From a virus (lineage: Duplodnaviria > Caudoviricetes): a stretch of 64,000 nt of DNA. Location: positions 32,001-96,000 of the IMG/VR virus record IMGVR_UViG_3300037067_027643; one strand, written 5' to 3'. The first letter of the stretch is position 1; every line of letters begins with the position of its first letter. This document shows, one piece after another, positions 16,153 to 61,581 of this stretch. The notes beneath the pieces are model-generated. The model saw nothing but the letters and a program-made list of their open reading frames with translations. It ran no database searches and was not told where the DNA came from. The position numbers were made by a program, and so were the translations under genes.

Positions 16153-17203
16153 TTAATTATGTGATTCAAGATAATTAAAATTATTCAACCAACCAATTAT
16201 ATCTTTTACTAATGTCATCCTGTCTTCTGCAAGCATTCTTATAAAATTACTTTTAGATAGATGATTTCTTTCATTATTCATCTGAACGCTGATCTTATTT
16301 TTAGCAAACTCACTAATATCAACATTATGAAGTTGCATTAATTGTTCATTTAATCTAAGTTGTTCTCGATTCGCATTAATACTATTATATGTATTACTTG
16401 TAGATTCTTTTTCACTTGAAATATTAATGATATCTTCTACCGTTACTCTTTTATCTTGTTCAAATAATACTGGAAATCTCTTCTGTAATGTTTTTAATCC
16501 TATTCCCTTTATTCCTGGTATATTATCACTTTTATCACCTGTTAAAGCTCTGTAAGTAAGATAATTTTCTGGACTTAATTCATATTCAGTGAATACTTTG
16601 TCGGTATCATATAATATCTTTTTAGTTGGACTCCATACATTACAACCATCATTTACCAACTGTAAAAAATCTCTATCACTTGACATTACAGTTACATTAT
16701 ATCGATTAGTATCATTAAAAATACTTCTACACATATAAGCAATAGTATCATCTGCCTCTATATTATCTACTGATATTAATGTTACTGGTAATTCATGTAA
16801 GTAATCCATTAATCTTAATAGTTCATACTGCTGTTGTTTAGAGTCTTCTTCTGATGTATCGTAAAAATCAGGTCTTAAAATCTTATGAACTCTTCTTTGT
16901 GATTTATATTCTGGAAACAGTTTTCTCCTTCTTACAGATCCTCCTTTACCATCAAATACTATATATACTTTATCTGGGTTACATAGTTTTATAGCATATC
17001 CTAAACTTAGTAAGCTTCCTGTTATTCCACCTATATGAATAGCATTTTCATTGGTATTTGGTGCAACACTATAAGAACGAATAAATAAGTTTGGCTCAGA
17101 GGCCGTCGATAATCAAGATATTACTCCTGATATCGACGACCTTATTACCATTATTTTTAGCTTGTAGCATTTCTGTAAAACGCTTTAATAGATTGTTATT
17201 CAT
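16153..17203 (-). CDS. 5'-3' exonuclease (FEN/T4 RNase H-like), interrupted by a 7-nt insert at 17092-17098
   Basis: ATG at 17203 gives MNNNLL...ILIIDGL then TGA; the +1 frame continues NLFIRSY...VFDGKGGSVRRRKLFPEYK...EADD...SSDRDF...GDKSDNIPGIKGIG. The ORF track shows only the last 218 aa. Confidence 0.85.
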
Positions 17204-18431
17204 CTCCCGCTGAGCCGTTATCAATTTCTATCTCGTCAGTATCATAATTAGGTTCATTCATATTACTTGATTCTAAACTACTATCATTTTTCTTATACTT
17301 CATAATCATTGAATCACATATATCTTTATACATCCCAGCTTTTATTTCTGGTCTTTCAAGTAATAATGGTTTAAATGTTTTTTTAGTAAATTTTACTACT
17401 TCTGCTGTTTCTTTATCAACCCAGGTATAATTTGATCCAGAACCATCTATAAGTCCTCTATCAGACATAGTTTCAATCCAACTGCCTAAGTTATCTATTC
17501 CACTATCAAAATAAATATTAAATATAGCTTTTCTATGAGGTGGACCAAATCTATTTTTAATAACTTTTACTTCTGTTCTTGCTCCAATTACTTCTTCTTT
17601 TCCTTTTGGACCAATTTTAATTTGTCCTATTTGTGCAATTTTTAACCTAGCACTTGCATAGAATTGTAATGCCTTACCACCGCCAGTCGTGGACTTATCT
17701 CCGAACATTACTCCTAGCTTATCTCTAAGCTGGTTATTAAAGATAAGAAGTATATTTTCATTAGCAATTAGTTGTTTTATTTTACGCAATCCTTTAGACA
17801 TAATAATCGCCTTCGCTGTTGACCAACCATCTTTATCGTAATCACTTTCCATTTCTACCTTTGTTGATGCAGCGGCAATTGAATCTACTATAATAGTAAC
17901 TAATCTTTTTTTGCTTGATTCTCTTACTTTTGAAATAATATTTTCGATTGCTTCAAATATTTCTTCTACCAACGCTAATTGAATATATACAAATTTCTTT
18001 GGATCAGTATCTACACCTATAGCAGATAGAAACTCAACATTTAAAGAATTTTCTGTGTCTATATATACTGGTAATCCACCTTTCCGTTGAGTGTCCGCCA
18101 TAATATGCCCTGATATCAAGGATTTCCCAGATGCTTCCCATCCGAAAAATTCCAAAATTCTTGCACTAGGTAAGCCTCCATTAGGTCTATTACTAATCGC
18201 GATATCTAACACATCACTACCTGTGGAAACCCAGTCATTTAAGTCAGATGGAGTTTCTTCACTTCCATCAAGATAATAAGCTACTTTTTCATATTCTTTA
18301 CTAAACTTTTTATTTAAGCTTTCAACAATACTTAATGATAAACTATCTTGTATTTCTGCTTTAGATTTTAATTTAGAATCAACTACCCCAGAATCATCCG
18401 GAGTAGTTTCTATTGATTTCTTTTTTGCCAT
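17196..18431 (-). CDS. recA: RecA/UvsX recombinase
   Basis: GWEASGKS, YIDTE, IIVDSIAA, NQLR, GGKALQFYAS, KNRFGPP. Confidence 0.93.
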   Translation of the reverse strand: MAKKKSIETTPDDSGVVDSKLKSKAEIQDSLSLSIVESLNKKFSKEYEKVAYYLDGSEETPSDLNDWVSTGSDVLDIAISNRPNGGLPSARILEFFGWEASGKSLISGHIMADTQRKGGLPVYIDTENSLNVEFLSAIGVDTDPKKFVYIQLALVEEIFEAIENIISKVRESSKKRLVTIIVDSIAAASTKVEMESDYDKDGWSTAKAIIMSKGLRKIKQLIANENILLIFNNQLRDKLGVMFGDKSTTGGGKALQFYASARLKIAQIGQIKIGPKGKEEVIGARTEVKVIKNRFGPPHRKAIFNIYFDSGIDNLGSWIETMSDRGLIDGSGSNYTWVDKETAEVVKFTKKTFKPLLLERPEIKAGMYKDICDSMIMKYKKNDSSLESSNMNEPNYDTDEIEIDNGSAGDE

Positions 18432-18439
18432 ACTTACTA

Positions 18440-19351
18440 TTAATTAAAAATTTCATCAAATGCTTGATTAACATCTTTTGTTGCTGTTGGCTTAATAGTA
18501 GCAGCTGTAGGTTTTACTGTAGTAGATGGAGTAGTTTTAGCGGTAGCTGTTGCAATTGATTTATTTACAACTACTTGTTTTGGTTTTGGTTGTTCAACAA
18601 CTGGTTTGGTTTCTTCTACCACCTGTTCTTCTACAACGGTTTCTTCTGTTTCATCGGTAGTTGTTTGTTCTTCTGTGTTTGTAGCAGTTGTTTCGCCTCC
18701 TGGTTCTAACCATTTAGCTAACATATCAGCTAATTCATCATAGGTAGATTTTGGATAGATATTATAAATATCAGTTTGTTTTGTTAAAATCAAATCTAAT
18801 ACAGCAGGATCATTAGTTGCTTTAGTAACATTTGGTTTTACTCTAACACTAATTTTGCCATATTTATTCTTTGCTACAGCTGGTTCAGTAAATTCTACAA
18901 CTATATCTCTTCCAGCATTTAAATCTGTAATATCACCGTAATCTGGATCTGTAGTGATTTTTAATAATTCTTGATATTGATCTTTACCAAATCCCCAAAA
19001 TTTAACTCCTTCTTTTTCTTTTCCTCTTACAATAATAGGAACAAATACTCTTAAAGATGGTTCTAATTTTTTTCCTAGCATCCAATCATCTTTATCTCCG
19101 GTGTTTTGAAGTGATAATGCAAATTCTTCAATTGGATCTAATTCTCCAAATGTTGTTAATGCTAATGGTTTTTTCTTACCACAGTTATAATGAAAATATA
19201 ATTCAATAAATGGATCATCTTTTCTAAATTGATAAGGTACAATTCTGATAATGTTTTCACCTGGTGCAGGTTTCCACTTGTTTTTGTTTACATTTGTGTT
19301 ACTTTGCAATGCTTTTAATTTTTTTCTCATTGCTTCTACGTCAATTGCCAT
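18440..19351 (-). CDS. gp32-like single-stranded DNA-binding protein
   Basis: IRIVPY, PFIELYFHY, VKFWGFGK, YGDITD, low-complexity linker, acidic tail FDEIFN; adjacent to recA. Confidence 0.8.
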   Translation of the reverse strand: MAIDVEAMRKKLKALQSNTNVNKNKWKPAPGENIIRIVPYQFRKDDPFIELYFHYNCGKKKPLALTTFGELDPIEEFALSLQNTGDKDDWMLGKKLEPSLRVFVPIIVRGKEKEGVKFWGFGKDQYQELLKITTDPDYGDITDLNAGRDIVVEFTEPAVAKNKYGKISVRVKPNVTKATNDPAVLDLILTKQTDIYNIYPKSTYDELADMLAKWLEPGGETTATNTEEQTTTDETEETVVEEQVVEETKPVVEQPKPKQVVVNKSIATATAKTTPSTTVKPTAATIKPTATKDVNQAFDEIFN

Positions 19352-25116: not shown

Positions 25117-28100
25117 TTAATTTGTTGAAGCATTTGGATCTACAGGATTTGTTTCTGGATCAACACTAACTACAGGAGGAGTTTTACCTACACTTGTATA
25201 ATATTCATATTGTCCGGTATCTTTATTTTTTGTCTTGGTTAATTCTTTAAACTGTTTAAAATAATCATAATCAGCAAAATAATAATTAGTTTTATTTGGA
25301 CTCTGTCTTCCTATTACTGTCCAAGAACAATTTACAGTACAAGCCATTGGTAGTTTATGATTATCAATATCCCAAGGAAAATCATCTTCTATTGTATAAT
25401 CTAAAGAAGAAAGGAATCCAAATTCGCTTTTTACAAAATTTCCTATTGTTAAAGTATATATAGGAGAAACCATTCTATTCTGTGATATTACTGGTGATAT
25501 TTTTTGTTGTAATTCGTTTAAATGTTTCCACATAATACCCATTTCAGTTTCACTTCCTGCCGCAGCTATAAAACTAAAATCTATAGTTCTACTCATCCCT
25601 TGGTACATAAATACCTCGTCTGGTCTTCCAGCATATTGTACAGAACTCCATTTTGGTGATGGTTTTGAACTTAAACTTTTTAAAATGGCTCTAAACTGAG
25701 TATTACATATTAATAAAGTAATAAAATCTTTTGTTATTATTGGTGTTAATCCTTCTATATTATATACATTATCTGGTTCTCCTGTATCCGGTATTCCAGC
25801 GGAACCATTGTGCATAGTAGCATATTTTTCTCCACTTTCATCTAATACAGCATTACCATATTTACTTATATAATATTGTGATACTTTTGACCAAGGTGGT
25901 GTTTCTACTCTTATTGGTTGTGGTATAATGCTTCCACTAATTCCTGTAGTTGATGCTCCTCTTACACTTGTTCTTGTATTTGTTACATGATTTACTTTAT
26001 TTTCATCTGATAAATCCGGATATTTTAAGTTATTATATAGTTTAGCTTCGTCTCCAATAAATATAGCATTACCTCCACCTGGATATCCTGTTTTAGTATC
26101 AAATGGATCTTTTACTGATTCTAATCTATTTGATATTTTGCTTCCTGGTAGCGATGATCCAATATTACTTGTATTAATTAAGGTAGTATCTAAAATATTA
26201 TTGGTATTGACAATTCCTTGTTGGTTATCTGGTTTTATACTTACAATTGAACTATATTTTAACTTATCATTCCAAAATTCAGATGGAGTATTTAATGTGC
26301 TATTATAGTTTACTGGTTTGGCTATATCTTTATGTAAATCTAACATTTCTATTGTTGACATACTTCTACCGTTATCTGGACGATATATGTTTGTAAACCC
26401 TAATCCATACAATGAATTTGGACCACCTATTCCCGATAATGTTACAATTGGAAGTTTATTTGTAGAATATAATAATGATGATTGTACTAACGGAGTAGTA
26501 TCTTTTCCCATCTCTTTCCACATTTTAAGCAATCTATTACCAATAACTAAAAATGGAAATCTTGGGTTATTTAATATATCTTTATTTTTAAATTTAACTA
26601 TATCTTCATAATCTGGAGATATTCCTAATAACCCATGTCTTGGTGCATGATATCCAATTAATCCTCCCGCTATTGATAATGGTACTTCTAAAGGATTGTA
26701 TATTCTATTAAAATTAATTGGTCCAATTTTTTCTGATTTTGGATTTGTTAATTGTAGTCCTTGTTGCTGTAATAGCCAAATTAAACCTTTGCCACTTGTT
26801 AAAAATTTAGTAGTTCTAATTAAATCAATTGCTGTTCTAGATGTTCGTAATTTTAAATTACCAAGTAAATCATTACTATTATCACTGTCTGTCCAAGTTT
26901 GTCCTATATTTCTTACTATGTAAGGTTGACCACTTGATCCCGCTCCTTTTTGATCTAACTCATATAAAAATTTAGATTTTATTTGTACTTTATCTATTAA
27001 TACACTTTCTTTTTTATAACTAGCATCTACTAATTGATTTAATAATGTTTCTGATTTTATATGTGTTGTATTTAAATCTAATTGATTTCCTCTTAAATTC
27101 TTATCTTGATCGGTAAACAGTCGTGCTACCATACCAGTTGGAAATGGTTGTTTAACTCCTAAAGGTGATGTAGTTTTATTAGTATTAATAGCTGTTTGAT
27201 TATTTGGAACCGTAATTGATGTTTTTGTTTTTACATTAGTATTATCTGTTACATCTGTTCCCGTTTTTGGTATTACATTTACATTATTACTAACATTTTT
27301 TCCAACTTTATTAATTAATCTTGTATTATCTGTTACAGATTTACCTGTTTTATTAACTGATTTTGTATTATCTGATACCGTTAATCCTTCTTTCCTTTTT
27401 ATACGAATATTATTATTAATATCCTTTCCTGTCTTAGGTTTTACAATTATATTATTATTTACATCTCTTCCTGTTTTATTTTTTACTACAGTATTATCAG
27501 TAACATCTCGTCCTGTTTTTGTTTTTACATTTATATTATCGGTTACATCAACTCCTGTTTTATTAGCAACTTTAACATTATCACTGACTGTTTGTCCTGT
27601 TTTATTTTTTAATACTGTATTATCGCTTACATCTTTTCCGGATTTTTGTATCGTTCTTATATTATTGGTTACTGTTAATCCTAATTTTTCTAATAATTTT
27701 GTTGTATCGCTAACTGATATTCCTGTCTTTGCAACTGTTTTTATATTATTAGATACATCTATACCAGTTTTATTTATTGTTACAATATTATTTGAAGGTG
27801 ATAATAAATTTTTAGTTTTATCTATTATTCTTGTATTATCTGAGATATTTACATTTGATGTTTTATTTATTATTTTTTTATCAGTAACTAAAACAGTATT
27901 AACTTTTGATTTGTCTTTATTTTTTGTAATATAATTATCAATTACTACAGATCCTTTGTTATCTGTTTGTTTGAAATTATTTATTTTAACTGTTTGTTCA
28001 TTGTATAAATCAACTAATGTTTTTCCTTTTGGATATGTATTATTACTTTTAACAGAATTTAAATGATGTGATACACCTAATTCATCTGGATTTTGAATAG

Positions 28101-28185
28101 ATGGAGTTGGACTATTCTTTAATGGTTTAGTTTGAAAAGAATAATTGACTTTCGATAAATCTGTTTTTAGGTTTTTAAGAGCCAT
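25117..28185 (-). CDS. baseplate/tail-tube-initiator-like protein with internal 14-aa repeats
   Basis: Follows tape measure; C-terminal QFRAIL...WSSVQYAGRPD...YQGMSRTIDFSF...LTIGN...PWD. Confidence 0.6.
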   Translation of the reverse strand: MALKNLKTDLSKVNYSFQTKPLKNSPTPSIQNPDELGVSHHLNSVKSNNTYPKGKTLVDLYNEQTVKINNFKQTDNKGSVVIDNYITKNKDKSKVNTVLVTDKKIINKTSNVNISDNTRIIDKTKNLLSPSNNIVTINKTGIDVSNNIKTVAKTGISVSDTTKLLEKLGLTVTNNIRTIQKSGKDVSDNTVLKNKTGQTVSDNVKVANKTGVDVTDNINVKTKTGRDVTDNTVVKNKTGRDVNNNIIVKPKTGKDINNNIRIKRKEGLTVSDNTKSVNKTGKSVTDNTRLINKVGKNVSNNVNVIPKTGTDVTDNTNVKTKTSITVPNNQTAINTNKTTSPLGVKQPFPTGMVARLFTDQDKNLRGNQLDLNTTHIKSETLLNQLVDASYKKESVLIDKVQIKSKFLYELDQKGAGSSGQPYIVRNIGQTWTDSDNSNDLLGNLKLRTSRTAIDLIRTTKFLTSGKGLIWLLQQQGLQLTNPKSEKIGPINFNRIYNPLEVPLSIAGGLIGYHAPRHGLLGISPDYEDIVKFKNKDILNNPRFPFLVIGNRLLKMWKEMGKDTTPLVQSSLLYSTNKLPIVTLSGIGGPNSLYGLGFTNIYRPDNGRSMSTIEMLDLHKDIAKPVNYNSTLNTPSEFWNDKLKYSSIVSIKPDNQQGIVNTNNILDTTLINTSNIGSSLPGSKISNRLESVKDPFDTKTGYPGGGNAIFIGDEAKLYNNLKYPDLSDENKVNHVTNTRTSVRGASTTGISGSIIPQPIRVETPPWSKVSQYYISKYGNAVLDESGEKYATMHNGSAGIPDTGEPDNVYNIEGLTPIITKDFITLLICNTQFRAILKSLSSKPSPKWSSVQYAGRPDEVFMYQGMSRTIDFSFIAAAGSETEMGIMWKHLNELQQKISPVISQNRMVSPIYTLTIGNFVKSEFGFLSSLDYTIEDDFPWDIDNHKLPMACTVNCSWTVIGRQSPNKTNYYFADYDYFKQFKELTKTKNKDTGQYEYYTSVGKTPPVVSVDPETNPVDPNASTN
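27190..27870 (-). repeat. degenerate 42-nt (14-aa) tandem repeat KTGxxV(S/T)(D/N)Nxxxxx
   Basis: Over a dozen units, e.g. KTGQTVSDNVKVAN-KTGVDVTDNINVKT-KTGRDVTDNTVVKN. Confidence 0.85.
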
Positions 28186-30995
28186 TAATACTTACCCTTT
28201 CCTGAAGTGTATGAAGAATTTGTTCCAAATGCAGGAACAACTTTAGTTAAATATCTTAAAAATTCAACTCCATCAATCTTAACAACTGCTCCACCATTTA
28301 CTGCTTCTATTAACATATCTAATTGTTCGTTTAATTTTTTTAATAATGTATTATCAGTACCACTAGCATTATTGTTACTTCCTCCACTTGTAAATGTATT
28401 AGGAGATGGTTTACTCATTACATCCATCTTTGTCATTGTTGGTGCACTAGTAGTAACTCCACCACTTTTAACATTTGATGGTTTACTCATTACATCCATT
28501 GTATTAATCTTAGAAAAATTAATACTTGATACTTTATCTAATAAATTCTCATACTTATTTAATTTTCCGAGAGCATTAGTCATATTATATATACCATTAG
28601 CGATATTATCAAAGAAATCAGCTACTTTATCAGGAGCACTTCTAATATTATCAAATGTTTTCATAAAATTAGTTAGATAAGGAAGTCCTTTTCCCATTTT
28701 TTCGAGTGCTACACCTAATGGAATCATTGATGCTCCTAATATTGCTATTGCTCCAGCTCCTGCTAATATAGCTACAGCACCAAACCCACTCATCATTACA
28801 GCTCCCAATGCTATTGCTTCTAATGCTACAGCTCCCAATACAATAGGAACCATCATTAATGTCTTCCAATCAATCCCGGCTAAATAACTCATTGCTACGC
28901 CAAATGGTATTAAAGCGGCTCCTAATATTCCAATAACAAATGCTCCCATTATTAACTGACTAGATGCTTTTGACATTATCTGTGAAATTCCCCAAAATCC
29001 AGCTACTAATATACCAAGTGCAGTCGCTCCTTTTGGAATTGACATCCAATCTACTTCATTAAATACCTTTAATGATTGTGCTAAAATATATATTGCCCCA
29101 GCCATTATTGCTATAGCAGCGGCTCCTTTTACAATATTACCCATATTAGAACCCATTCCTTTAAACATTCCAGTAGCTGCTGCGCCACCTTTCCCTACAT
29201 CGGGAGTAGCTCCACCACCAATACTCGGTTTTATACCACCTTTTATTCCGACCCCACCTACACCACCTGCACCTGTTTTTGGCTTACCCATAAAAAAGTT
29301 ACTTAATTTAGTACCAGCTAACATACTAGAATTCCATATTTTTTGCCACAAAACATTTAATTTCAATGCTTTTGCAATATGTCCAAAATTAAATAAAAAA
29401 CTACCAACACTCATTACAGCACTACCAATTAATCCACCCCATTCTTTAAGCGAACTACCTCCACCTACAACTTTTTCTCCTATCTTATCCCAATATGTAC
29501 CAATCTTATTTGTTAATTTAGCTTGATCTTTTGAAGCAGTATACATTTTCATAACTTCATCAACTTGTAATCCAAGTAAATCTGCTACTGACTTCTTTTG
29601 ATACATATCCATCTTATTCCATTCTGTAATCCCACCCATCTGTTTCATTAAATCTTGCATTGCTCCTGCATGATCTCCGTCATACATTTTTTGTCTTACA
29701 GCTTGTAGATTTAATTGTTTTCCTAACATTACAGAAGCATTCATTTCTTTTTCTATACTATCGGTTGGATCTCCTAATAATGATTCTTGTATCTGTGCTA
29801 TATTACTTAATTCTAATCCAAGTTTCTTTGCAGTAATAGAAGCTTTAAATATATTTTCCCCACCTTTTTTTCCTGACAATGCAAATAATTCAGCATTATT
29901 AGCTACCTCTCTCATCATAGCTCCAATTGGAATTCCATTACTACGAGCTAAATTCTTTGCTGTTTCTAATGTAGATTTACTTGTTCCTTTCATTAATCTA
30001 GTAATAGTTGTTGCTTCTGTAGCAGTCAATCCATACAAACTCATTAATTTACCTGTTTGTATTACATTTTCTTTTGTTGCTTGTGTAATACCTCCCATTG
30101 TATTAGATATTTCTGTAAATGCTTCTGCACTAGTTTTTATTCCAACTCCTCCCCAAAATCCACTACTACTAAATATAGATGACCCCATTACTCCAGCCAT
30201 ACTTGTCATTTGTGTTAATGATAACCCTAATACTTTATGAGCATCTTTTATAGCATCTGCAAAATCGTAAGCTTTTTTAGATAAAAATCCCATAAAAGCA
30301 ATAAATGCTGTCTTTGGACTTGTGATTAATGTTTTAAATGTAGTGACCCAGGTATTAACCTTTTCTTTTATTTCATCTAAATATTTTGATTGTTCTTTTA
30401 GTATATTATTTGCTTTATCAATATAATCTTTGTTCTTAATATATTCTGTATTAATATTTTTTATTTTTGATAATGACTGTTCTACTAATTTTAATTCTTT
30501 TTTTGATAAAGTTGGAAATTGATTTTTTATCTTTAACATTTCCAAATCATCTCTAAATATTTTTGTATTTCCTTGATTTATATCTTTAAACTGTAATGCT
30601 GTTAATTTTACTATACTATGTTTTGCTTTGTTGATATCTGTATCTTTTTTCTTCATATCAACATAAGATTGTGCAATTTTTTTATCTAAATTGAAATCTA
30701 ATTTTTTTATAAATAAATTTTCTTTTTGAATCTTTCCTATTTCTGTTGATAAATCTAATAAATCATCCTCATAATCATATTGTTTTTCTAAACTTTTAAT
30801 TGTATCTGGTAATATTTTTTGATATTCCGCTTCTTTTTTATTACGAGTTTCTAATCGTTCATTTATTTTTATCCATTTTTGTACTTGTTGATCTAACAAT
30901 TCATTAATCTCACGATCAGCCTTTCCAAGTTTTATTAACTTAGCTTCTTCTAATTTAAATTGTTTATCAATATCTATAGCAGCTTTTCTAGCCAT
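28185..30995 (-). CDS. tail tape measure protein
   Basis: Long helical Ala/Gly/Met-rich protein with hydrophobic segments, downstream of the tail chaperone. Confidence 0.8.
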   Translation of the reverse strand: MARKAAIDIDKQFKLEEAKLIKLGKADREINELLDQQVQKWIKINERLETRNKKEAEYQKILPDTIKSLEKQYDYEDDLLDLSTEIGKIQKENLFIKKLDFNLDKKIAQSYVDMKKKDTDINKAKHSIVKLTALQFKDINQGNTKIFRDDLEMLKIKNQFPTLSKKELKLVEQSLSKIKNINTEYIKNKDYIDKANNILKEQSKYLDEIKEKVNTWVTTFKTLITSPKTAFIAFMGFLSKKAYDFADAIKDAHKVLGLSLTQMTSMAGVMGSSIFSSSGFWGGVGIKTSAEAFTEISNTMGGITQATKENVIQTGKLMSLYGLTATEATTITRLMKGTSKSTLETAKNLARSNGIPIGAMMREVANNAELFALSGKKGGENIFKASITAKKLGLELSNIAQIQESLLGDPTDSIEKEMNASVMLGKQLNLQAVRQKMYDGDHAGAMQDLMKQMGGITEWNKMDMYQKKSVADLLGLQVDEVMKMYTASKDQAKLTNKIGTYWDKIGEKVVGGGSSLKEWGGLIGSAVMSVGSFLFNFGHIAKALKLNVLWQKIWNSSMLAGTKLSNFFMGKPKTGAGGVGGVGIKGGIKPSIGGGATPDVGKGGAAATGMFKGMGSNMGNIVKGAAAIAIMAGAIYILAQSLKVFNEVDWMSIPKGATALGILVAGFWGISQIMSKASSQLIMGAFVIGILGAALIPFGVAMSYLAGIDWKTLMMVPIVLGAVALEAIALGAVMMSGFGAVAILAGAGAIAILGASMIPLGVALEKMGKGLPYLTNFMKTFDNIRSAPDKVADFFDNIANGIYNMTNALGKLNKYENLLDKVSSINFSKINTMDVMSKPSNVKSGGVTTSAPTMTKMDVMSKPSPNTFTSGGSNNNASGTDNTLLKKLNEQLDMLIEAVNGGAVVKIDGVEFLRYLTKVVPAFGTNSSYTSGKGKY

Positions 30996-52901: not shown

Positions 52902-54283
52902 AAATTTAATATTTTTTTATTATTTTTACGTTCTTCTCTTTCCTGTTTCATTTTCTTATTAGCTTTTCTATCTTTCCATGATTCTCCTTCACTACTGTCT
53001 TTGATATTCAATATAGGTTTTACTCTATCAATTATTTCAATAGTAGGTTCCAATAATAGTTCAATTAATTCACTGTCTTTATAAGATTGTGGGCTTTCAT
53101 CTAATGTACCTTTACAAACAGAAGTTGAATAAATCCCTTCCATAGACTTTTTAAAATCATCTAAATTTACTGTTTCTTTTGCTTTAGTTCTACTCATTAT
53201 TCTACCGGCTCCATGAGCACAACTGTAATTCCAATCTGGATTAGATTTACCGACAGCGATAACCATTCCATCTCTCATATTAAATGGTATAATCATCTTT
53301 TTATCTTTGTAAGATGCTATTGCTCCTTTACGAATTATAAAATCATTAAAATCGACATAATTGTGAATTGACTCTATTACTTCATCAAATTTAGTAATAT
53401 TTAAAACTTCTTGAATAATATCTAACATTGTTTTTCTATTCCAAACTGCATACTGTTGAGCAAATATCATATCAAATAAATAGTTTATTAAATATTCATC
53501 TTGTAAGTATTCTCGATCTATTCCTATACCAAACTTTTTTTTAAGTGAATCAATTTTATTTGGTATCTCTTTCTTATCAACTGTATTTAATACAATTTCA
53601 TTTAATCGTTTACTGTAATTATTAGAAGATCCATTCATTTGTTTTTTAGCTTGATTTATCCAATATTCTGCTACCTTTAAACCAAAGTTTCTACTTCCAG
53701 AATGAATGGTTACATAATAATCTGTAAGTGCTTGATTTACACCTATTTCAAGAAAGTGATTGCCTCCACCCATTGACCCAATACTATTAAAAAACTTCTT
53801 GATATTCATTTTAATATCTTTTAATTTTTTAATTAACCATTGTTCACTATATAATGGAGCTACATAATTTGTATTATATTTAACATTAAATGCTTTTACA
53901 AACTTATCTGCTATTATCTGTACATCATTGTATGGAATATCAGTAAAAACAGGACTTTTATGTTCATTAAATCCCATTGGAATTCTATGTCTGATTTCCT
54001 TATTTATTTTTTCTAAATCTAAATTAGAAGCATTTGGAAACTTTCCACTAATGAGACCACAGCCAATATCAACGCCTATATAGCTGGGTGTTAAGTAGTT
54101 ACCTAATTCCATTGTAAATCCAATACAAATTCCTTTACCAAAATGAGCATCCGGTTGAATTCTTACTTTAAGTCCTTTTGATATTGGAGAATTGATAATC
54201 GAATATATTTGAGAAATTACTTCCTCCTCTACATTATCAATGAATATTTTTGCTGTTGTATATTTCCCTGTTAATTCTATCAT
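52898..54283 (-). CDS. rtcB: RNA ligase RtcB
   Basis: PDAHFG, GVDIGCG, GGGNHF, HSGSR, HNY, RKGA, HGAGR, DESPQSYK. Confidence 0.95.
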   Translation of the reverse strand: MIELTGKYTTAKIFIDNVEEEVISQIYSIINSPISKGLKVRIQPDAHFGKGICIGFTMELGNYLTPSYIGVDIGCGLISGKFPNASNLDLEKINKEIRHRIPMGFNEHKSPVFTDIPYNDVQIIADKFVKAFNVKYNTNYVAPLYSEQWLIKKLKDIKMNIKKFFNSIGSMGGGNHFLEIGVNQALTDYYVTIHSGSRNFGLKVAEYWINQAKKQMNGSSNNYSKRLNEIVLNTVDKKEIPNKIDSLKKKFGIGIDREYLQDEYLINYLFDMIFAQQYAVWNRKTMLDIIQEVLNITKFDEVIESIHNYVDFNDFIIRKGAIASYKDKKMIIPFNMRDGMVIAVGKSNPDWNYSCAHGAGRIMSRTKAKETVNLDDFKKSMEGIYSTSVCKGTLDESPQSYKDSELIELLLEPTIEIIDRVKPILNIKDSSEGESWKDRKANKKMKQEREERKNNKKILNL

Positions 54284-57169: not shown

Positions 57170-57199
57170 TTTATTTTTTAAGGAGGAAAAATAAAGTAG

Positions 57200-57271
57200 A
57201 GCCCATTTCTGGAATTGAACCAGAATATATAGTTTTGCGGACTACTGACTAAACCATTCATCCAAATGGGC
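57200..57271 (-). tRNA. tRNA-Cys(GCA)
   Basis: Cloverleaf; anticodon arm GTAGT-CCGCAAA-ACTAT. Confidence 0.85.
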
Positions 57272-57278
57272 ATTTTTG

Positions 57279-57365
57279 CATACGTTGTAGGATTTGGACC
57301 CACGAGGAAGTATAAACTTCAATAGTTTTGGAGACTATCGCCTTCGACCACTTGGCTAAACGTAT
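57279..57365 (-). tRNA. tRNA with CCA (Trp) anticodon and long variable arm
   Basis: ATAGT-CTCCAAA-ACTAT; variable arm GAAGT-TTAT-ACTTC; G73. Confidence 0.8.
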
Positions 57366-57378
57366 GTATATCAATTAG

Positions 57379-57459
57379 TTGCGAGAGAGGGACTTGAACC
57401 CTCGAGGCTTACGCAATGGGATATGAGCCCATCCTGATACCAACTTCAGTCATCTCGCA
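57379..57459 (-). tRNA. tRNA-Met(CAT), initiator-like, with extended variable region
   Basis: ATGGG-CTCATAT-CCCAT (three G-C pairs); 12-nt variable region. Confidence 0.8.
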
Positions 57460-57465
57460 ATATAT

Positions 57466-58563
57466 TTATATTTCTAAAATTACATCTTTATGATCTAAAA
57501 TTAATTTGAAATTATATCCATGTTCTTTATAAGCTTTTAATTTATCTTTCATGTTTTGTTCATTGTATGTATAATTACTTTTTATTTCTACAATTAAATT
57601 TGTGTCTGGTAAATAAAAATCGGGTATTGCTGTTCTTTGTTTTAATAATTGTGTATCCCAATATGAAATTCTTAATTTTTCAACTTCATAATTAATTTTA
57701 TCTTTATCTAATTGGTTAGCATATTCTAATTCATACCCACTTCTATAAAATATTTGTTTATTATTCCAAGTAGTATGATATCCATGTTTATAATGTGAAT
57801 TTTTATTAATTACATTTAATTTTCCATGAATTATAGCATTTCCAGTACTTTCAGAAAAACATCGTAATTTAATATTAAAATAATTTATCACTTTATTAAA
57901 ATTTGATAAAGAATATCCATATTTCTCTGACATATCTGAAGTACTTAATTTTTCATCATAATAGTCTTCATATAGCATAATTCGAATTCGTTCAAATTCT
58001 TCGTAATAATTTTTGGTTCCTAATACATTTTTATCAAATCCAAAGTATTTTATTAAATTTGGAATTATTTGATATCGTTTACAAATTTCTGGATGTTTAC
58101 ATTGACCTTTTATTGATCCACACATTTTACAATCAACATTATTAAATCTTTTTCTTTGATATTCTAATTTACAAATATTACATAAACATTTTTTAATACT
58201 ATTTCTTTTATTAACAATAATATCGCTTCCGCATTTAACACATTTAGCTTCTTTTGTTTCTAAATTATTATCGTTTTTTGTACTATATTTATGAGAACAA
58301 TACGAAGAACAAAATCTACCACTACCATACGAACCATCTATTTCTATACCACATTCTTCACAATATAATTGCTTTATTTCAATTATTTTATTAGCATTAA
58401 TTATTGCCTTTTTCTTCTCTTTTGTTATTCTACATAATTCTATTTGTTCTTTTGTTATTATTCTACTTCTACTACATGATTTTGAACAAAATTTTCCAGT
58501 TCCATAAGAACCATTATGTTCATGTCCACATTTTTCACAAAATTTTTTATTTTCCATATCCAA
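57466..58563 (-). CDS. homing endonuclease (Zn-finger repeats, TnsA-like PD-(D/E)XK) inside tRNA array 1
   Basis: Two CExCG..GSYGxGxFCS units; YRSGYE; IPDFYLP...VEIKS. Confidence 0.8.
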   Translation of the reverse strand: MDMENKKFCEKCGHEHNGSYGTGKFCSKSCSRSRIITKEQIELCRITKEKKKAIINANKIIEIKQLYCEECGIEIDGSYGSGRFCSSYCSHKYSTKNDNNLETKEAKCVKCGSDIIVNKRNSIKKCLCNICKLEYQRKRFNNVDCKMCGSIKGQCKHPEICKRYQIIPNLIKYFGFDKNVLGTKNYYEEFERIRIMLYEDYYDEKLSTSDMSEKYGYSLSNFNKVINYFNIKLRCFSESTGNAIIHGKLNVINKNSHYKHGYHTTWNNKQIFYRSGYELEYANQLDKDKINYEVEKLRISYWDTQLLKQRTAIPDFYLPDTNLIVEIKSNYTYNEQNMKDKLKAYKEHGYNFKLILDHKDVILEI

Positions 58564-58651
58564 ACTATTTTACATTTTATATATAAATAGTAAATAGTTT
58601 GAAAATAAATTCCGCAATATTTCAAAGAACAATTTTAATTTTATAAATTTG

Positions 58652-58724
58652 AGCCAATAGAAGGAATCCAACCCTCAACCCTTCCGGTACAAACGGATTG
58701 CTCTAGCAATTGAGCTATACTGGC
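58652..58724 (-). tRNA. tRNA-Thr(TGT)
   Basis: TCCG-TTTGTAC-CGGA; acceptor GCCAGTA/TATTGGC. Confidence 0.8.
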
Positions 58725-58741
58725 ATTACATTATTATAGGG

Positions 58742-58818
58742 CGGTCTATAAGGAATTTGAATCCTTCTGAACATTCCGAGTGACAGTCGGACAGCCACAC
58801 CTAGCAGCTCCATAGACC
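58742..58818 (-). tRNA. tRNA-Asp(GTC)
   Basis: TCCGA-CTGTCAC-TCGGA; G73. Confidence 0.85.
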
Positions 58819-58842
58819 AATTATATATTATATTAATTTTAG

Positions 58843-58915
58843 TGAGACTATGAGGAATCAAACCCCAATCCTATGAACCGTACTCATAAATTCTATTCAA
58901 TTGAACTATAGTCCC
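58843..58915 (-). tRNA. tRNA-Arg(ACG)
   Basis: TATGA-GTACGGT-TCATA. Confidence 0.8.
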
Positions 58916-58930
58916 AAATTAATAATAAAG

Positions 58931-59003
58931 TATTCGGTACGGGAGTTGAACCCGTATGTCAAGATTGAAGGTCTTGAATCCTTACCAATTAGATGAACCG
59001 AAC
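58931..59003 (-). tRNA. tRNA-Glu(TTC)
   Basis: CAAGA-CCTTCAA-TCTTG. Confidence 0.85.
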
Positions 59004-59019
59004 AAATGTCTTGTATATG

Positions 59020-59092
59020 TAGCCAAAGATGGAATTGAACCATCGCCCTGTATCTTATAAGGATACTGCTCTTACCACTGAGCTACTTGGCT
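59020..59092 (-). tRNA. tRNA-Ile(TAT)
   Basis: GTATC-CTTATAA-GATAC; A73. Confidence 0.85.
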
Positions 59093-59103
59093 ATATTTAA
59101 TAG

Positions 59104-59178
59104 TGGAATCTATGGTATTCGAAACCATCTGCTGTTCTCAGTGCAAATGAGATGACCACCCTAGCAGTCCCAGACCCC
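59104..59178 (-). tRNA. tRNA-Ala(TGC)
   Basis: TCTCA-TTTGCAC-TGAGA; G3:U70. Confidence 0.88.
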
Positions 59179-59189
59179 GTTTATATTAG

Positions 59190-59264
59190 TTGGTGTAATT
59201 GGATTTGAACCAATGACCTCAATCTTATCAGGATTGTCGTCTGACCGGGCTGACATATACACCA
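59190..59264 (-). tRNA. tRNA-Ile(GAT)
   Basis: CAATC-CTGATAA-GATTG. Confidence 0.88.
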
Positions 59265-59274
59265 ATATAATTAG

Positions 59275-59346
59275 TGGAACTAGATGGATTTGGACCACCG
59301 ACCACTTCCTCTTCAGGGAAGCACTCTACCACTGAGTTATAGTTCC
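59275..59346 (-). tRNA. tRNA-Phe(GAA)
   Basis: CTTCC-CTGAAGA-GGAAG. Confidence 0.88.
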
Positions 59347-59356
59347 ATTGTATTTG

Positions 59357-59430
59357 TAGGAATACCAGGATTCAAACCTGGGATCTAGTGGATGTAAACC
59401 AATCGCTTTAATCAACTAAGCTATATTCCT
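59357..59430 (-). tRNA. tRNA-Val(TAC)
   Basis: TGG-TTTACAT-CCA; acceptor AGGAATA/TATTCCT. Confidence 0.82.
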
Positions 59431-59440
59431 ATGTTATCAG

Positions 59441-59513
59441 CGACTCTAATACGGAATGATCGTATAACCTACCGGTTAACAGCCGGTTGCTCTACCAATT
59501 GAGCTATAGAGTC
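59441..59513 (-). tRNA. tRNA-Asn(GTT)
   Basis: ACCGG-CTGTTAA-CCGGT; atypical T-loop ATCATTC. Confidence 0.82.
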
Positions 59514-59522
59514 ATATATTAG

Positions 59523-59594
59523 TGCCTTCGAATCGACTTGAACGATTACTCTTACATCTTAAAAGGATGAGATTTTACATTAAACTACGAAGGC
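59523..59594 (-). tRNA. tRNA-Lys(TTT)
   Basis: CATC-CTTTTAA-GATG. Confidence 0.82.
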
Positions 59595-59599
59595 AATTG

Positions 59600-59682
59600 T
59601 GGAGGAAGAGTGATTTGAACACCCATAGCTTTTTGCGACGGATTTACAGTCCGCTGATTTCTACCCACTTACCATTTCCTCC
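59600..59682 (-). tRNA. tRNA-Tyr(GTA)
   Basis: GCGGA-CTGTAAA-TCCGT; long variable arm. Confidence 0.88.
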
Positions 59683-59702
59683 ATTATATATTATTATCTT
59701 TG

Positions 59703-59774
59703 AGCGAGATAACGGGTTCAAACCGTTGACAAAGCATTGGAAGTGCCTCATGTTATCAACTACACCAATCTCGC
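59703..59774 (-). tRNA. tRNA-Gly(TCC)
   Basis: AGGCA-CTTCCAA-TGCTT; U73. Confidence 0.88.
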
Positions 59775-59796
59775 TTAATTCATTTATATCAATACG

Positions 59797-59806
59797 TCAA
59801 AGAACA
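59797..59806 (-). promoter_or_regulatory. boxA-like antitermination element (also 58622-58630, 61217-61225, 61607-61615)
   Basis: GTTCTTTGA occurs four times in spacers of the tRNA arrays. Confidence 0.65.
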
Positions 59807-59823
59807 TTGTTTTTAATTCAAAT

Positions 59824-59863
59824 AAAAAACCCAACTAGTTTTTTAATTTTCTGGTTGGGTTTT
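59824..59863 (-). terminator. attenuator terminator upstream of tRNA array 1
   Basis: AAAACCCAACCAG/CTAGTTGGGTTTT stem ending in T6, between the leader ORF and the first tRNA. Confidence 0.8.
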
Positions 59864-59896
59864 ATATATTTTATTATAATATATTTTTTAATAAAC

Positions 59897-60052
59897 TCAC
59901 CAACCAACATCTTTTGCTTCTTCTCCAAAACGATAATCATTATTTGTTTTTGCTATAAAAATACAACCGTCCACAAACATCATATTTTTATCTATAATGC
60001 TATTGTTCCAACATGTATTATTAATGACTGTATTATTTCGCTTTGTTTTCAT
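59897..60052 (-). CDS. candidate attenuation leader peptide 1 (51 aa)
   Basis: Not in ORF track. MKTKRNNTVINNTCWNNSIIDKNMMFVDGCIFIAKTNNDYRFGEEAKDVGW with A-rich initiation region; its 3' end is complementary to the terminator 5' arm. Confidence 0.75.
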   Translation of the reverse strand: MKTKRNNTVINNTCWNNSIIDKNMMFVDGCIFIAKTNNDYRFGEEAKDVGW

Positions 60053-60084
60053 TTTATTTTTTGTTATTACTTCTTTTTATTTTA

Positions 60085-60213
60085 TATAAATAGTTAAAAA
60101 TAAATTAAAAATTTTCAATTTCAAATTATTTTACAAAATTAAGTAAATTTTTTCACTCTACCAAATTTATTTTTAATTATTTTAATATACAACATTATTT
60201 TCAAATAAACAAA
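60085..60213 (-). promoter_or_regulatory. three stacked promoter motifs upstream of leader 1
   Basis: TTTG-N20-TATATTAA (60182-60213), TTTG-N20-TAATTTTG (60134-60165), ACTATTTATA (about 60085-60094). Confidence 0.65.
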
Positions 60214-60232
60214 TAAAATTTAATTGTAATAT

Positions 60233-60997
60233 TTATTTATCCCAAATATTATTAAATTTTGAATAATCAATATCTTCGTATGGATATTTATCATTAAAAT
60301 ATTCCAATTTTACTATATCAAATGTATTTAATAATTTTTTATCATCTATCAATAAAATTTTTATATTTGTTTCATGAATACATTTCCACATTTTACATTT
60401 ATCATTTTCACTCATCCAACCTTTTACTTCAATATATACATCAAAATCAGGCAAATAAAAATCTGGCGTATAAGAACGAGATTTATCAAATTTGACTCTT
60501 ATTCTATCCCAATTTATTTTTAATTCATTTAATCGTTCCGCTACTGTTTTTTCCCATTTTCCTTGAACATTAATTATTTTATATCCATTATATATCGAAT
60601 ACCACAATATATTATTTCCTTTATTTTCTTCTAAAAATTTTATCCTATGTTCTGACATTTTCTTTCTTGATTCAATTGTATGGTTTTTATTATTCCAATA
60701 TGGTATTATTTCGCCATTTTCAAATTTCTGTTTAAGATTAATACTAGTATTTTTAAGTCTATCATCATTTTCTTTTGTTAATCCCTTATTCCATTTCATA
60801 TTTTCTTTTGATTCTTCGGGAAAGTCTAAAAATTTTTCTTTACCCGATTTTATTTTTCCAGAACTATATGATTTTTTTAAACCATTACTATTTTTTAACC
60901 TATTTGCTGGACATTGATTAAAATGCTCTGAACAACAATATTTACCATTTTTTAATTGATATTTTCCTTCTTGACCGCAATTATAAGCACACAACAT
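60233..60997 (-). CDS. homing endonuclease (Zn motif, NUMOD3-like, PD-(D/E)XK) between the tRNA arrays
   Basis: CAYNCG..CCS..CP; KNHTIESRKKMS; YTPDFYLP...IEVKGW. Confidence 0.8.
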   Translation of the reverse strand: MLCAYNCGQEGKYQLKNGKYCCSEHFNQCPANRLKNSNGLKKSYSSGKIKSGKEKFLDFPEESKENMKWNKGLTKENDDRLKNTSINLKQKFENGEIIPYWNNKNHTIESRKKMSEHRIKFLEENKGNNILWYSIYNGYKIINVQGKWEKTVAERLNELKINWDRIRVKFDKSRSYTPDFYLPDFDVYIEVKGWMSENDKCKMWKCIHETNIKILLIDDKKLLNTFDIVKLEYFNDKYPYEDIDYSKFNNIWDK

Positions 60998-61046
60998 AAT
61001 TTTTACTATTTGTTTACTTATAAATAGTAAAAATTATTATTTTTCG

Positions 61047-61120
61047 TATCCACAGAAGGAGTCGAACCCTCAACCATTGGGGTAGAATCCCAATATTCTA
61101 TCCAGTTGAACTATGTGGAC
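61047..61120 (-). tRNA. tRNA-Arg(TCT)
   Basis: TTGGG-ATTCTAC-CCCAA. Confidence 0.85.
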
Positions 61121-61127
61121 ATTTTGG

Positions 61128-61201
61128 GGTGGCACTCGAGGATTGAACTCAAATCAACAGATTCACAGTCTGCCCGCTTAACCATTTAGCGTAATGTCAC
61201 C
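61128..61201 (-). tRNA. tRNA-His(GTG)
   Basis: GCAGA-CTGTGAA-TCTGT; G-1:C73. Confidence 0.88.
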
Positions 61202-61237
61202 ATTTAAAAATTATATTCAAAGAACTATTGTTATCTG

Positions 61238-61314
61238 TCTAGGCGGTGCGATTCGAACGCACGTTATGTCGTGTTTCCAAAACACGCTAGTTTAGCCATC
61301 TGCTGTACGCCTAG
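61238..61314 (-). tRNA. tRNA-Pro(TGG)
   Basis: CGTGT-TTTGGAA-ACACG; C1:G72, A73. Confidence 0.85.
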
Positions 61315-61320
61315 TTATTG

Positions 61321-61406
61321 CGGAAAAATAAGGATTCGAACCTTAGGGACTGTTACATCCACGTCATTAGCAGTGACGCACAATAGACCAACTCTGTCAT
61401 TTTTCC
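61321..61406 (-). tRNA. tRNA-Ser(GCT)
   Basis: CGTCA-CTGCTAA-TGACG; long variable arm; G73. Confidence 0.9.
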
Positions 61407-61413
61407 ATTATAG

Positions 61414-61487
61414 CAGCCAAAACTGGGCTCGAACCAATACTCCGACAGTCAAAGTGTCGTATGCTTTACCGATTACATTATTTGGCT
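61414..61487 (-). tRNA. tRNA-Gln(TTG)
   Basis: CGACA-CTTTGAC-TGTCG. Confidence 0.88.
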
Positions 61488-61494
61488 ATAAAAG

Positions 61495-61581
61495 CGGAAG
61501 GTTAGGGACTCAAACCCCAGATACGGTATTAGCGTATTACTAATTTTCAAGATTAGCTCTTCGTTCAGCCAGACACCTTCC
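61495..61581 (-). tRNA. tRNA-Ser(TGA)
   Basis: CTAAT-CTTGAAA-ATTAG; long variable arm; G73. Confidence 0.82.

Follow-up and report, generated by a model that had tools for sequence, protein, structure and literature searches.

A 7-nt, stop-containing insertion splits the FEN gene of a jumbo phage inside its active-site motif, and on the sequences compared here the gene is probably rescued by a +1 ribosomal frameshift, with a plain knock-out allele nearly as likely. In the form of rescue that we favor, to which we assign a probability of roughly 0.4, the insertion would be compensated by hairpin-assisted +1 frameshifting at GGC-CUC-UGA, giving an enzyme that reads DGLEPN where its relatives read DGLN. 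The finding is more than a sequencing problem. Programmed recoding, which a first-pass annotation of this DNA had proposed, is only partly supported: the insert is real, a full-length enzyme needs a frame change and the gene looks selected, but the hairpin beside the break predates the insert and there is no conserved recoding cassette.

The FEN gene and its interruption

The window, a stretch of 64,000 nt, is part of a 285,744-bp IMG/VR virus record (GC 25.5%) that was cut from a 318-kb metagenome contig, and these sizes identify the source as a jumbo phage. Its minus strand carries a replication module composed of a gp32-like gene (19351-18440), a RecA/UvsX-like gene (17196..18431; PF00154 in homologous loci), FEN, and a DnaB-like helicase gene (16097-14697), an order that is common to four more distant relatives. 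The FEN start codon, an ATG at 17203, overlaps the stop codon of the RecA-like gene directly upstream (ATGAATAA), and translation of FEN is probably coupled to that gene. The downstream part of FEN matches PF02739 at 84.9 bits (cut-off 34.3) and PF01367 at 47.3 bits (cut-off 40). This domain pair and the catalytic carboxylates are shared with T5 D15, T4 RNase H, and the 5′-nuclease domain of bacterial Pol I; unlike in those enzymes, the reading frame here is broken in the first metal-binding motif. The carboxylate motifs (DG.N, FDG, EADD, and SxDxD) are all present, with D33, D84, E149, D151, D152, D176, and D178 matching conserved columns. FEN is a single-copy gene, and neither a second FEN nor a T4-type RNase H was found in the genome. 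Searches of GenBank phages returned no match by blastn and only distant relatives (≤40% identity) by tblastn, and a scan of IMG/VR with the FEN protein gave no match.

The N-terminal reading frame (17096..17203, minus strand) comprises 35 codons (M...ILIIDGL), homologous to the N-termini of relatives, and ends at a TGA (17098-17096) inside the DGLN active-site motif. The rest of FEN lies in the +1 frame (16153..17091, minus strand), running from N38 (17091-17089) through 311-312 codons to the stop at 16153. FEN is thus not one uninterrupted reading frame, with a TGA after codon 35 and the remainder displaced by +1. The first-pass annotation had described a 7-nt, stop-containing insert in the active-site motif, and this description was borne out: deleting exactly 7 nt restores IIDGLNLFIR and brings the protein into agreement with 120 relatives. 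Frame 0 stops at 17096 and the +1 frame first opens at 17112, so any change of frame has to fall between these positions (17096..17112, minus strand; AUU AUC GAC GGC CUC UGA), and an active enzyme would need the change to occur after the Asp codon within this interval. No ATG, GTG, or TTG is present in the +1 frame upstream of 16809, where the first canonical start codon lies.

The site is unusual in both spacing and codon content. When the best 120 FEN relatives are aligned, the distance from the Asp to the Arg of the DGLN motif is the same in all of them, with no residue gained or lost (0/120). The three codons before the UGA are all rare in the phage (GAC 6.0, GGC 1.6 (1.58), and CUC 0.9 (0.89) per 1000), GGC and CUC being the rarest synonyms for Gly and Leu. 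The phage encodes 22 tRNA genes that cover 19 amino acids, all except Leu. A genome-wide search for coding leaders that lack a start codon yielded 101 codons at FEN and 33 for the next longest, making FEN the only long case in 285.7 kb; there is no second interrupted gene and no general frameshift noise. Start-less leaders on the plus strand (27200-30240 and others) proved to be artifacts that lie antisense to long minus-strand genes. Reading of TGA as a sense codon was also rejected: stops of all three kinds abound in frame 0 beyond the TGA, and 15 of 128 long open reading frames end in TGA. Gene callers truncate FEN to 218 aa.

The insert occupies 17092..17099 on the minus strand and can be written as TGAGCCA (17098-17092) or equally as CTGAGCC (17099-17093) within an ancestral CT^A Leu codon; it supplies the frame-0 stop. 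Strictly, the change is a small replacement in which ATT in the close relative L007 corresponds to CCTCTGAGCC in the window. The insert-carrying sequence is identical in contigs of two runs, X1 and X2, the second of which comes from another study and has 0 differences over 16385-18088, and an ENA assembly (L012) also contains the insert, with one mismatch in 5797 nt. These matches, along with the retention of the same length in a diverged strain described below, rule out an assembly error: the insert is real and inherited. An artifact, or a minority variant promoted by the assembler, would be favored by the metagenomic origin of the assembly and by the loss of rare alleles from view in contigs; we regard this as extremely improbable against identical sequences in contigs from three sources and at least two studies, the length kept in the diverged strain, and a genome otherwise without frameshift noise. 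Neither the 89%-identical strain nor any of the 119 more distant homologs has the insert, which we judge from these comparisons to be a derived, lineage-specific mutation. Scanning IMG/VR for the 16-nt junction gave five matches, each in a contig that is unrelated, richer in GC, and devoid of a FEN gene, and these were dismissed as chance matches rather than true relatives.

The genome holds no other copy of the insert or of the adjacent hairpin. The heptamer GGCTCAG (17210..17216, minus strand), located in the tail of the RecA-like gene 110 nt upstream, is the exact reverse complement of CTGAGCC, and both heptamers are unique in the 285,744-nt genome. Finding an inverted partner of this kind within 150 nt has an estimated probability of ~1e-3, for what is a post-hoc observation. 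The partner suggests that the insert arose by templated strand switching or, alternatively, that an extended structure was co-selected. A search for a tRNA 3′ end as the origin of CCTCTGA-G-CCA found no matching tRNA in the phage; the only other CTCTGAG in the genome sits in ordinary coding sequence. None of the public RNA runs listed holds the locus.

Related strains and selection on the broken gene

FEN homologs at ≤52% identity are all intact and ~350 aa long. One close relative was recovered, L007/L008, with 89-95% amino-acid identity; its sequences come from JGI and ENA assemblies and are identical to each other, and the L007 contig was the sole return of the JGI metagenome scan. At the DGLN site L007 reads ATC GAC GGA TTA AAT TTG, with no insert and with the common codons GGA and TTA. 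L007 carries a break of its own, a 2-nt deletion (AGAG to AG) in the NIEADD motif that is followed two codons later by a TGA. No simple shift restores Glu-Ala-Asp-Asp, no significant structure was found around the deletion (z ~ -0.1), and the break looks like a plain slippage null. That an unrescuable break of this kind was assembled at all indicates that FEN-null genomes reach assembly-level, and hence detectable, abundance. A further short contig, L009, covers nothing but a C-terminal piece that looks chimeric, and it gives no information on the insert site.

Comparison with L007 gives a dN/dS of 0.07-0.08 for FEN on both sides of both breaks, below the values for the RecA-like gene (0.25) and the gp32-like gene (0.27). 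At the 95 columns that are at least 90% conserved among the 119 homologs, no lineage-specific change in the window was found among comparable deviations: those at conserved columns are common to L007 or fall at clade-variable positions, and one C-terminal deviation lies beyond the L007 contig and so outside the comparison.

A second, more diverged strain (X3/X4) comes from a freshwater sample of a different study. The X4 contig (~263-282 nt) covers 17000-17265 at 92.8% identity and differs in length solely by the in-frame loss of 3 nt at 17150. It follows that the diverged strain keeps the net +7; at the insert this strain is known by length alone, from contigs that are short and of low depth. 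There is no gap at the site of the L007 deletion. Among the differences from the window that were listed for the downstream frame, 16/18 lie at third positions (binomial P = 1.7e-6) and 14/18 are synonymous; 15 of these 18 lie below 16809. Within 16875-17022, a segment upstream of the first ATG that contains no canonical start, 10 of 148 nt differ in the diverged strain, well below the ~15% or more that third-position divergence suggests for neutral sites.

Persistence of the net +7 in a strain that is ~7% diverged, together with change that is dominated by synonymous differences, argues that the gene is still expressed, and the downstream FEN frame is intact and constrained. If both strains inherited the insert from a common ancestor, FEN has stayed functional since it arose; in principle, the allele could also have passed between strains by recombination. 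Compensated (“corrective” or “savior”) indels are a recognized class that includes +1 inserts in mitochondrial nad3 and G-runs in herpesvirus TK (PMC5009743). The FEN insert resembles them in that it is absent from relatives yet persistent, in the diverged strain by length, and stands in a conserved gene whose downstream frame is under purifying selection. It differs in being 7 nt rather than 1, in residing in a phage, and in that its product is predicted.

The mRNA hairpin at the insertion site

A hairpin with an 18-bp stem, a 6-nt loop, and one bulged U lies at 17100..17142 on the minus strand. ILIIDG is encoded by its 3′ arm, whose last two bases are the first two of the CUC codon. In a 71-nt context the fold has a free energy of -30.8 kcal/mol (z = -6.7), and 0/200 shuffled sequences are as stable, confirming the GC-rich structure that had been reported directly 5′ of the insert in this genome of 25.5% GC. 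When 151 nt are folded, the insert and its upstream complement GGCTCAG pair as a 7-bp helix that stacks on the hairpin (-47.7 kcal/mol, z = -6.3); L007 has neither arm of this helix. L007 does form a hairpin at the same place (17 bp, -22.9 kcal/mol, z = -5.9) despite 11 differing stem nucleotides; among the changes are a basal G-C pair turned into U-A by a double compensatory change and an upper stem that pairs in a different register. Because L007 lacks the insert and keeps the hairpin through compensatory changes, the hairpin predates the insert and is under selection for its own sake. It was therefore not selected for recoding, and the insert is best described, from these comparisons, as a mutation beside a pre-existing hairpin rather than a conserved recoding cassette.

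The first-pass annotation had called the two halves of the gene undecayed, which holds true, although the hairpin is not specific to the insert. It had also suggested checking whether relatives keep the insert together with a covarying hairpin: L007 does have a hairpin with compensatory changes, and X4 has the net +7, but the insert itself is absent from L007 and from the 119 homologs.

No structure was detected at the hairpin site in four relatives at ~50% identity, and the site has no Rfam match. A role as a terminator was rejected because no T-run follows the stem. A promoter-like TTTACA/AATAAT pair at 17179-17150 was likewise set aside, being not above chance, with fewer such sites than in shuffled sequences.

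Candidate +1 rescue and competing explanations

The rescue that we favor would proceed as follows. A 7-nt insertion struck FEN at the 3′ foot of an already existing mRNA hairpin, setting a UGA directly behind GAC-GGC-CUC and pushing the remaining gene into the +1 frame, and the allele may have survived through a fraction of ribosomes that shift +1 at the site. Ribosomes would pause when the rare CUC occupies the P site and the UGA the A site or, alternatively, when GGC occupies the P site and the very rare (“hungry”) CUC codon the A site, a variant that would give DGSEPN. With GGC in the E site, the GC-rich hairpin could re-form right behind it, much like the prfB Shine-Dalgarno duplex, and push the mRNA forward by one base, so that decoding would resume at GAG-CCA-AAC. 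The predicted product is a full-length FEN with two extra residues (DGL-EP-NLFIR), made at a reduced level and coupled to translation of the RecA-like gene.

A stable duplex that ends at the E/P boundary, a Leu CUN codon, and a UGA together give the site an anatomy that fits a +1 shift. As in prfB, a Leu CUN codon would occupy the P site with an in-frame UGA in the A site (here CUC UGA G), the shift would be in the +1 direction, and a stable duplex ends ~3 nt before the shift codon. Several features differ from prfB. The shift codon is CUC in place of the CUU of CUU UGA C, and re-pairing at UCU in the +1 frame creates a central mismatch. The duplex is an intramolecular hairpin, where prfB uses upstream SD:anti-SD pairing. 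The site is not conserved across the family, only the net length being kept in one diverged strain, and FEN has no autoregulatory logic, the shift instead adding two residues to an active-site loop. No Shine-Dalgarno-like sequence is found 3 nt upstream of the shift codon, where the bases are AUCGACGGC, without a GGAGG-like match, and where the hairpin arm lies.

Refolding hairpins juxtaposed to the E site stimulate +1 frameshifting on 70S and 80S ribosomes in engineered constructs (PMC3639245, PMC6321510). On 70S ribosomes, a stable hairpin in this position stimulates +1 shifting at CUUUGA and mimics the prfB Shine-Dalgarno duplex, an effect that in vitro required the absence of RF2 (PMC6321510). 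The FEN site shares with these constructs a 3′ arm that abuts the E-site codon directly upstream of Leu-UGA; unlike them, it is a natural CUCUGA and a putative shift site, where the constructs were engineered on CUUUGA and worked in vitro only without RF2. The suggestion of a prfB-type shift at CUC-UGA, made in the first-pass annotation, therefore gains a precedent for an E-site duplex on 70S ribosomes (PMC6321510) but is weakened by the poor re-pairing and by the missing Shine-Dalgarno sequence.

An AlphaFold2 model of the +1 product has a pLDDT of 88.7 overall and of ~78 for the block 31-40, with strand 27-33 and helix 41-46 flanking a longer loop. Activity of the EP-containing enzyme is something that we infer, as the model does not decide it. 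The +1 rescue has weak points besides the RF2 dependence seen in vitro. It would add Glu-Pro next to the catalytic Asp, in a motif whose length is invariant among 120 relatives, and CUC would re-pair poorly with UCU, owing to the middle-position mismatch, unlike CUU with UUU. Should the +1 rescue be true, FEN would provide a natural case of a hairpin that replaces a Shine-Dalgarno duplex as a +1 stimulator, which has so far been shown only with engineered constructs. It would also place the birth of a recoding site in an ordinary insertion beside an existing structure, with the allele surviving in a leaky context, and so bear on the question of how gene 60 or prfB-type sites originate.

An uncompensated null allele is a quite possible alternative: the insertion would simply inactivate FEN, and the phage would rely on host 5′ nucleases or even gain from the loss, for example by escaping a host defense or homing endonuclease that targets this conserved site. 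On this view the downstream frame would look intact because the mutation is young or because the gene has recombined with unbroken alleles. Such a reading accords with the different and plainly unrescuable frameshift that L007/L008 carries in the same gene, with the lack of the insert in the 89%-identical strain and the 119 more distant homologs, with the change that any +1 product makes to an invariant active-site loop, and with a hairpin that is not insert-specific. In T4, the functional counterpart of FEN, rnh, is non-essential in the laboratory, and we count this in its favor as well. It is harder to reconcile with a net +7 that is also found in the ~7% diverged strain, with third-position changes in 16 of the 18 differences listed, and with the lack of decay at conserved columns, since neutrality from the split onward would predict ~20 replacements at conserved codons and several stops (an estimate for a 25% GC genome). 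A recent transfer of the allele is likewise disfavored by the 7% divergence of the contig that surrounds the insert, and no second FEN or T4-type RNase H serves as a backup in the genome. If the knock-out is true, two sister phages with independent frameshifts in the FEN active site would suggest recurrent loss of this nuclease in nature, which would be relevant to studies of phage-host defense.

The remaining readings restore the protein by other routes, or leave it in two pieces. An exact 7-nt bypass, in which peptidyl-tRNA-Leu would leave CUC at the UGA and decoding would resume at AAC to give wild-type DGLNLF, is unlikely, even though it is the sole outcome that restores the invariant motif spacing and would fit the strong purifying selection. 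Such a hop could be driven by the hairpin together with the long-range 7-bp helix, in which the insert forms the 3′ strand, as they re-fold behind the ribosome: the last inserted base is also the last base of the structured element, and pairing of the mRNA on exit from the ribosome has been proposed as a driver of forward bypassing (bioRxiv 10.1101/2024.12.09.627546). The site resembles T4 gene 60, with its 50-nt bypass, in having a stop right after the last frame-0 or take-off codon, strong local mRNA structure, and an insert within a conserved replication gene of a large phage. It departs from gene 60 in a gap of 7 nt rather than 50, in the lack of a mobile endonuclease gene adjoining the site, and in its hairpin, which lies 5′ of the stop and of the take-off codon, whereas the gene 60 stem-loop holds the take-off codon and the stop and the structure there is on the 3′ side. 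Nor is there a matched take-off and landing pair, the take-off codon being CUC or GGC and the triplet before AAC being CCA. Downstream Leu codons fail as landing sites, since CUU (+12) gives frame 0 and UUA (+13) deletes the invariant Asn. The first-pass annotation, which listed a hop as in gene 60 among its options, had itself noted the missing landing codon, and an unmatched 7-nt hop has no known precedent. An exact bypass, if true, would be the natural equivalent of T4 gene 60 in minimal form, arisen from a fresh mutation.

Re-initiation after the UGA, at a nearby non-canonical codon (AUU 17082-17080, for example) or at ATG 16809, would yield a two-piece enzyme whose C-terminal fragment works alone or with the 35-aa peptide, and has in our view a smaller chance still. 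The constrained downstream frame and the 15 of 18 listed differences that lie below 16809 are compatible with it, but no canonical start or Shine-Dalgarno sequence occurs between 17112 and 16809, and the segment 16875-17022 remains conserved, with 10/148 differences. The fragment would moreover lack strand 1 and the catalytic Asp or, with the later start, all of the first third of the PIN-like domain.

Removal of the 7 nt from the RNA as a micro-intron, by an endonuclease and the RtcB ligase of the phage, would also yield the wild-type protein and is very improbable. An RtcB-type ligase is indeed encoded (53000-54169, minus strand; PF01139, 185.6 bits), as HAC1/XBP1 or archaeal bulge-helix-bulge splicing would lead one to expect, but the junction motif of those systems is missing: there is no bulge-helix-bulge, twin-loop, or paired-loop motif, the folds placing the insert either across an internal loop and a helix or within a plain 7-bp helix, and no Rfam family matches. 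The break in L007 is a deletion, beyond repair by splicing, and excision of this kind has no known precedent in bacteria or phages. Apart from the presence of the RtcB gene, nothing was found to bear out this suggestion of the earlier reading. The gene adjoins the tRNA arrays that hold the 22 tRNA genes, a location that makes tRNA repair a likelier role for RtcB than mRNA splicing.

Independent frameshifts and uneven divergence in the replication module

The FEN (5'-3' exonuclease/flap endonuclease) gene of the 89%-identical sister strain carries a frameshift of its own, a 2-nt deletion (AGAG to AG) inside the NIEADD active-site motif that is followed by a TGA stop codon. This deletion is located at L007:2860-2875 in one assembly of the strain and at L008:2678-2693 in the other, with its counterpart at window 16757-16758. 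We found no local structure around the deleted site, and no frame shifts restore the NIEADD motif in this gene. The frameshifts in the two sister phages therefore arose independently, each within a FEN catalytic motif.

Compared with L007, FEN is much less diverged (pS 0.36, pN 0.04; window 16153-17091) than the RecA-like and gp32-like genes (pS about 0.5, pN about 0.19; window 17196-19351). This disparity suggests that the replication module is of mosaic ancestry or has recombined internally.

The RecA-like/FEN junction and the hairpin

The 14-nt stretch at window 17204-17217, CTCCCGCTGAGCCG (+ strand letters), is rich in G/C: counting this one, the entire 285.7-kb genome has just 13 stretches of this length in which at least 11 positions are G/C. 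Within it lie the end of the RecA-like gene, the GGCTCAG arm and a GGGAG immediately ahead of the ATG of FEN. The GGCTCAG arm matches the 7-nt FEN insert as its reverse complement.

In four more distant relatives (L013-L016, ~50% identity), a spacer of 40-70 nt lies between RecA and FEN, and the hairpin found 5' of the insert is absent from the RecA/FEN region. Because the hairpin is confined to the clade whose RecA/FEN junction overlaps, it may regulate coupled FEN expression. A sigma-70-like site on the minus strand (TTTACA-18-AATAAT, window 17150-17179, 10/12 match) ends about 7 nt ahead of the hairpin's 5' foot, so transcription could start at the hairpin. Shuffled sequences contain sites of this kind at least as often.

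RtcB, tRNA genes, and antisense frames

An RtcB RNA ligase gene (window 53000-54169, minus strand; PF01139, 185.6 bits) lies close to the tRNA arrays, at a distance of about 3 kb, and this proximity points to a role in tRNA repair. ARAGORN identifies 22 tRNA genes covering 19 amino acids (window 57199-61581, minus strand), with leucine alone lacking a phage tRNA. The FEN frame break falls on a leucine codon, the rare CUC.

Two + strand frames of 189 codons each (window 28960-29526 and 29674-30240) are stop-free and start-free and have good codon scores. Both were rejected as coding frames, being antisense to a 936-aa minus-strand gene. They are an artefact of the AT-rich genome, one to be kept in mind for ORF scans.
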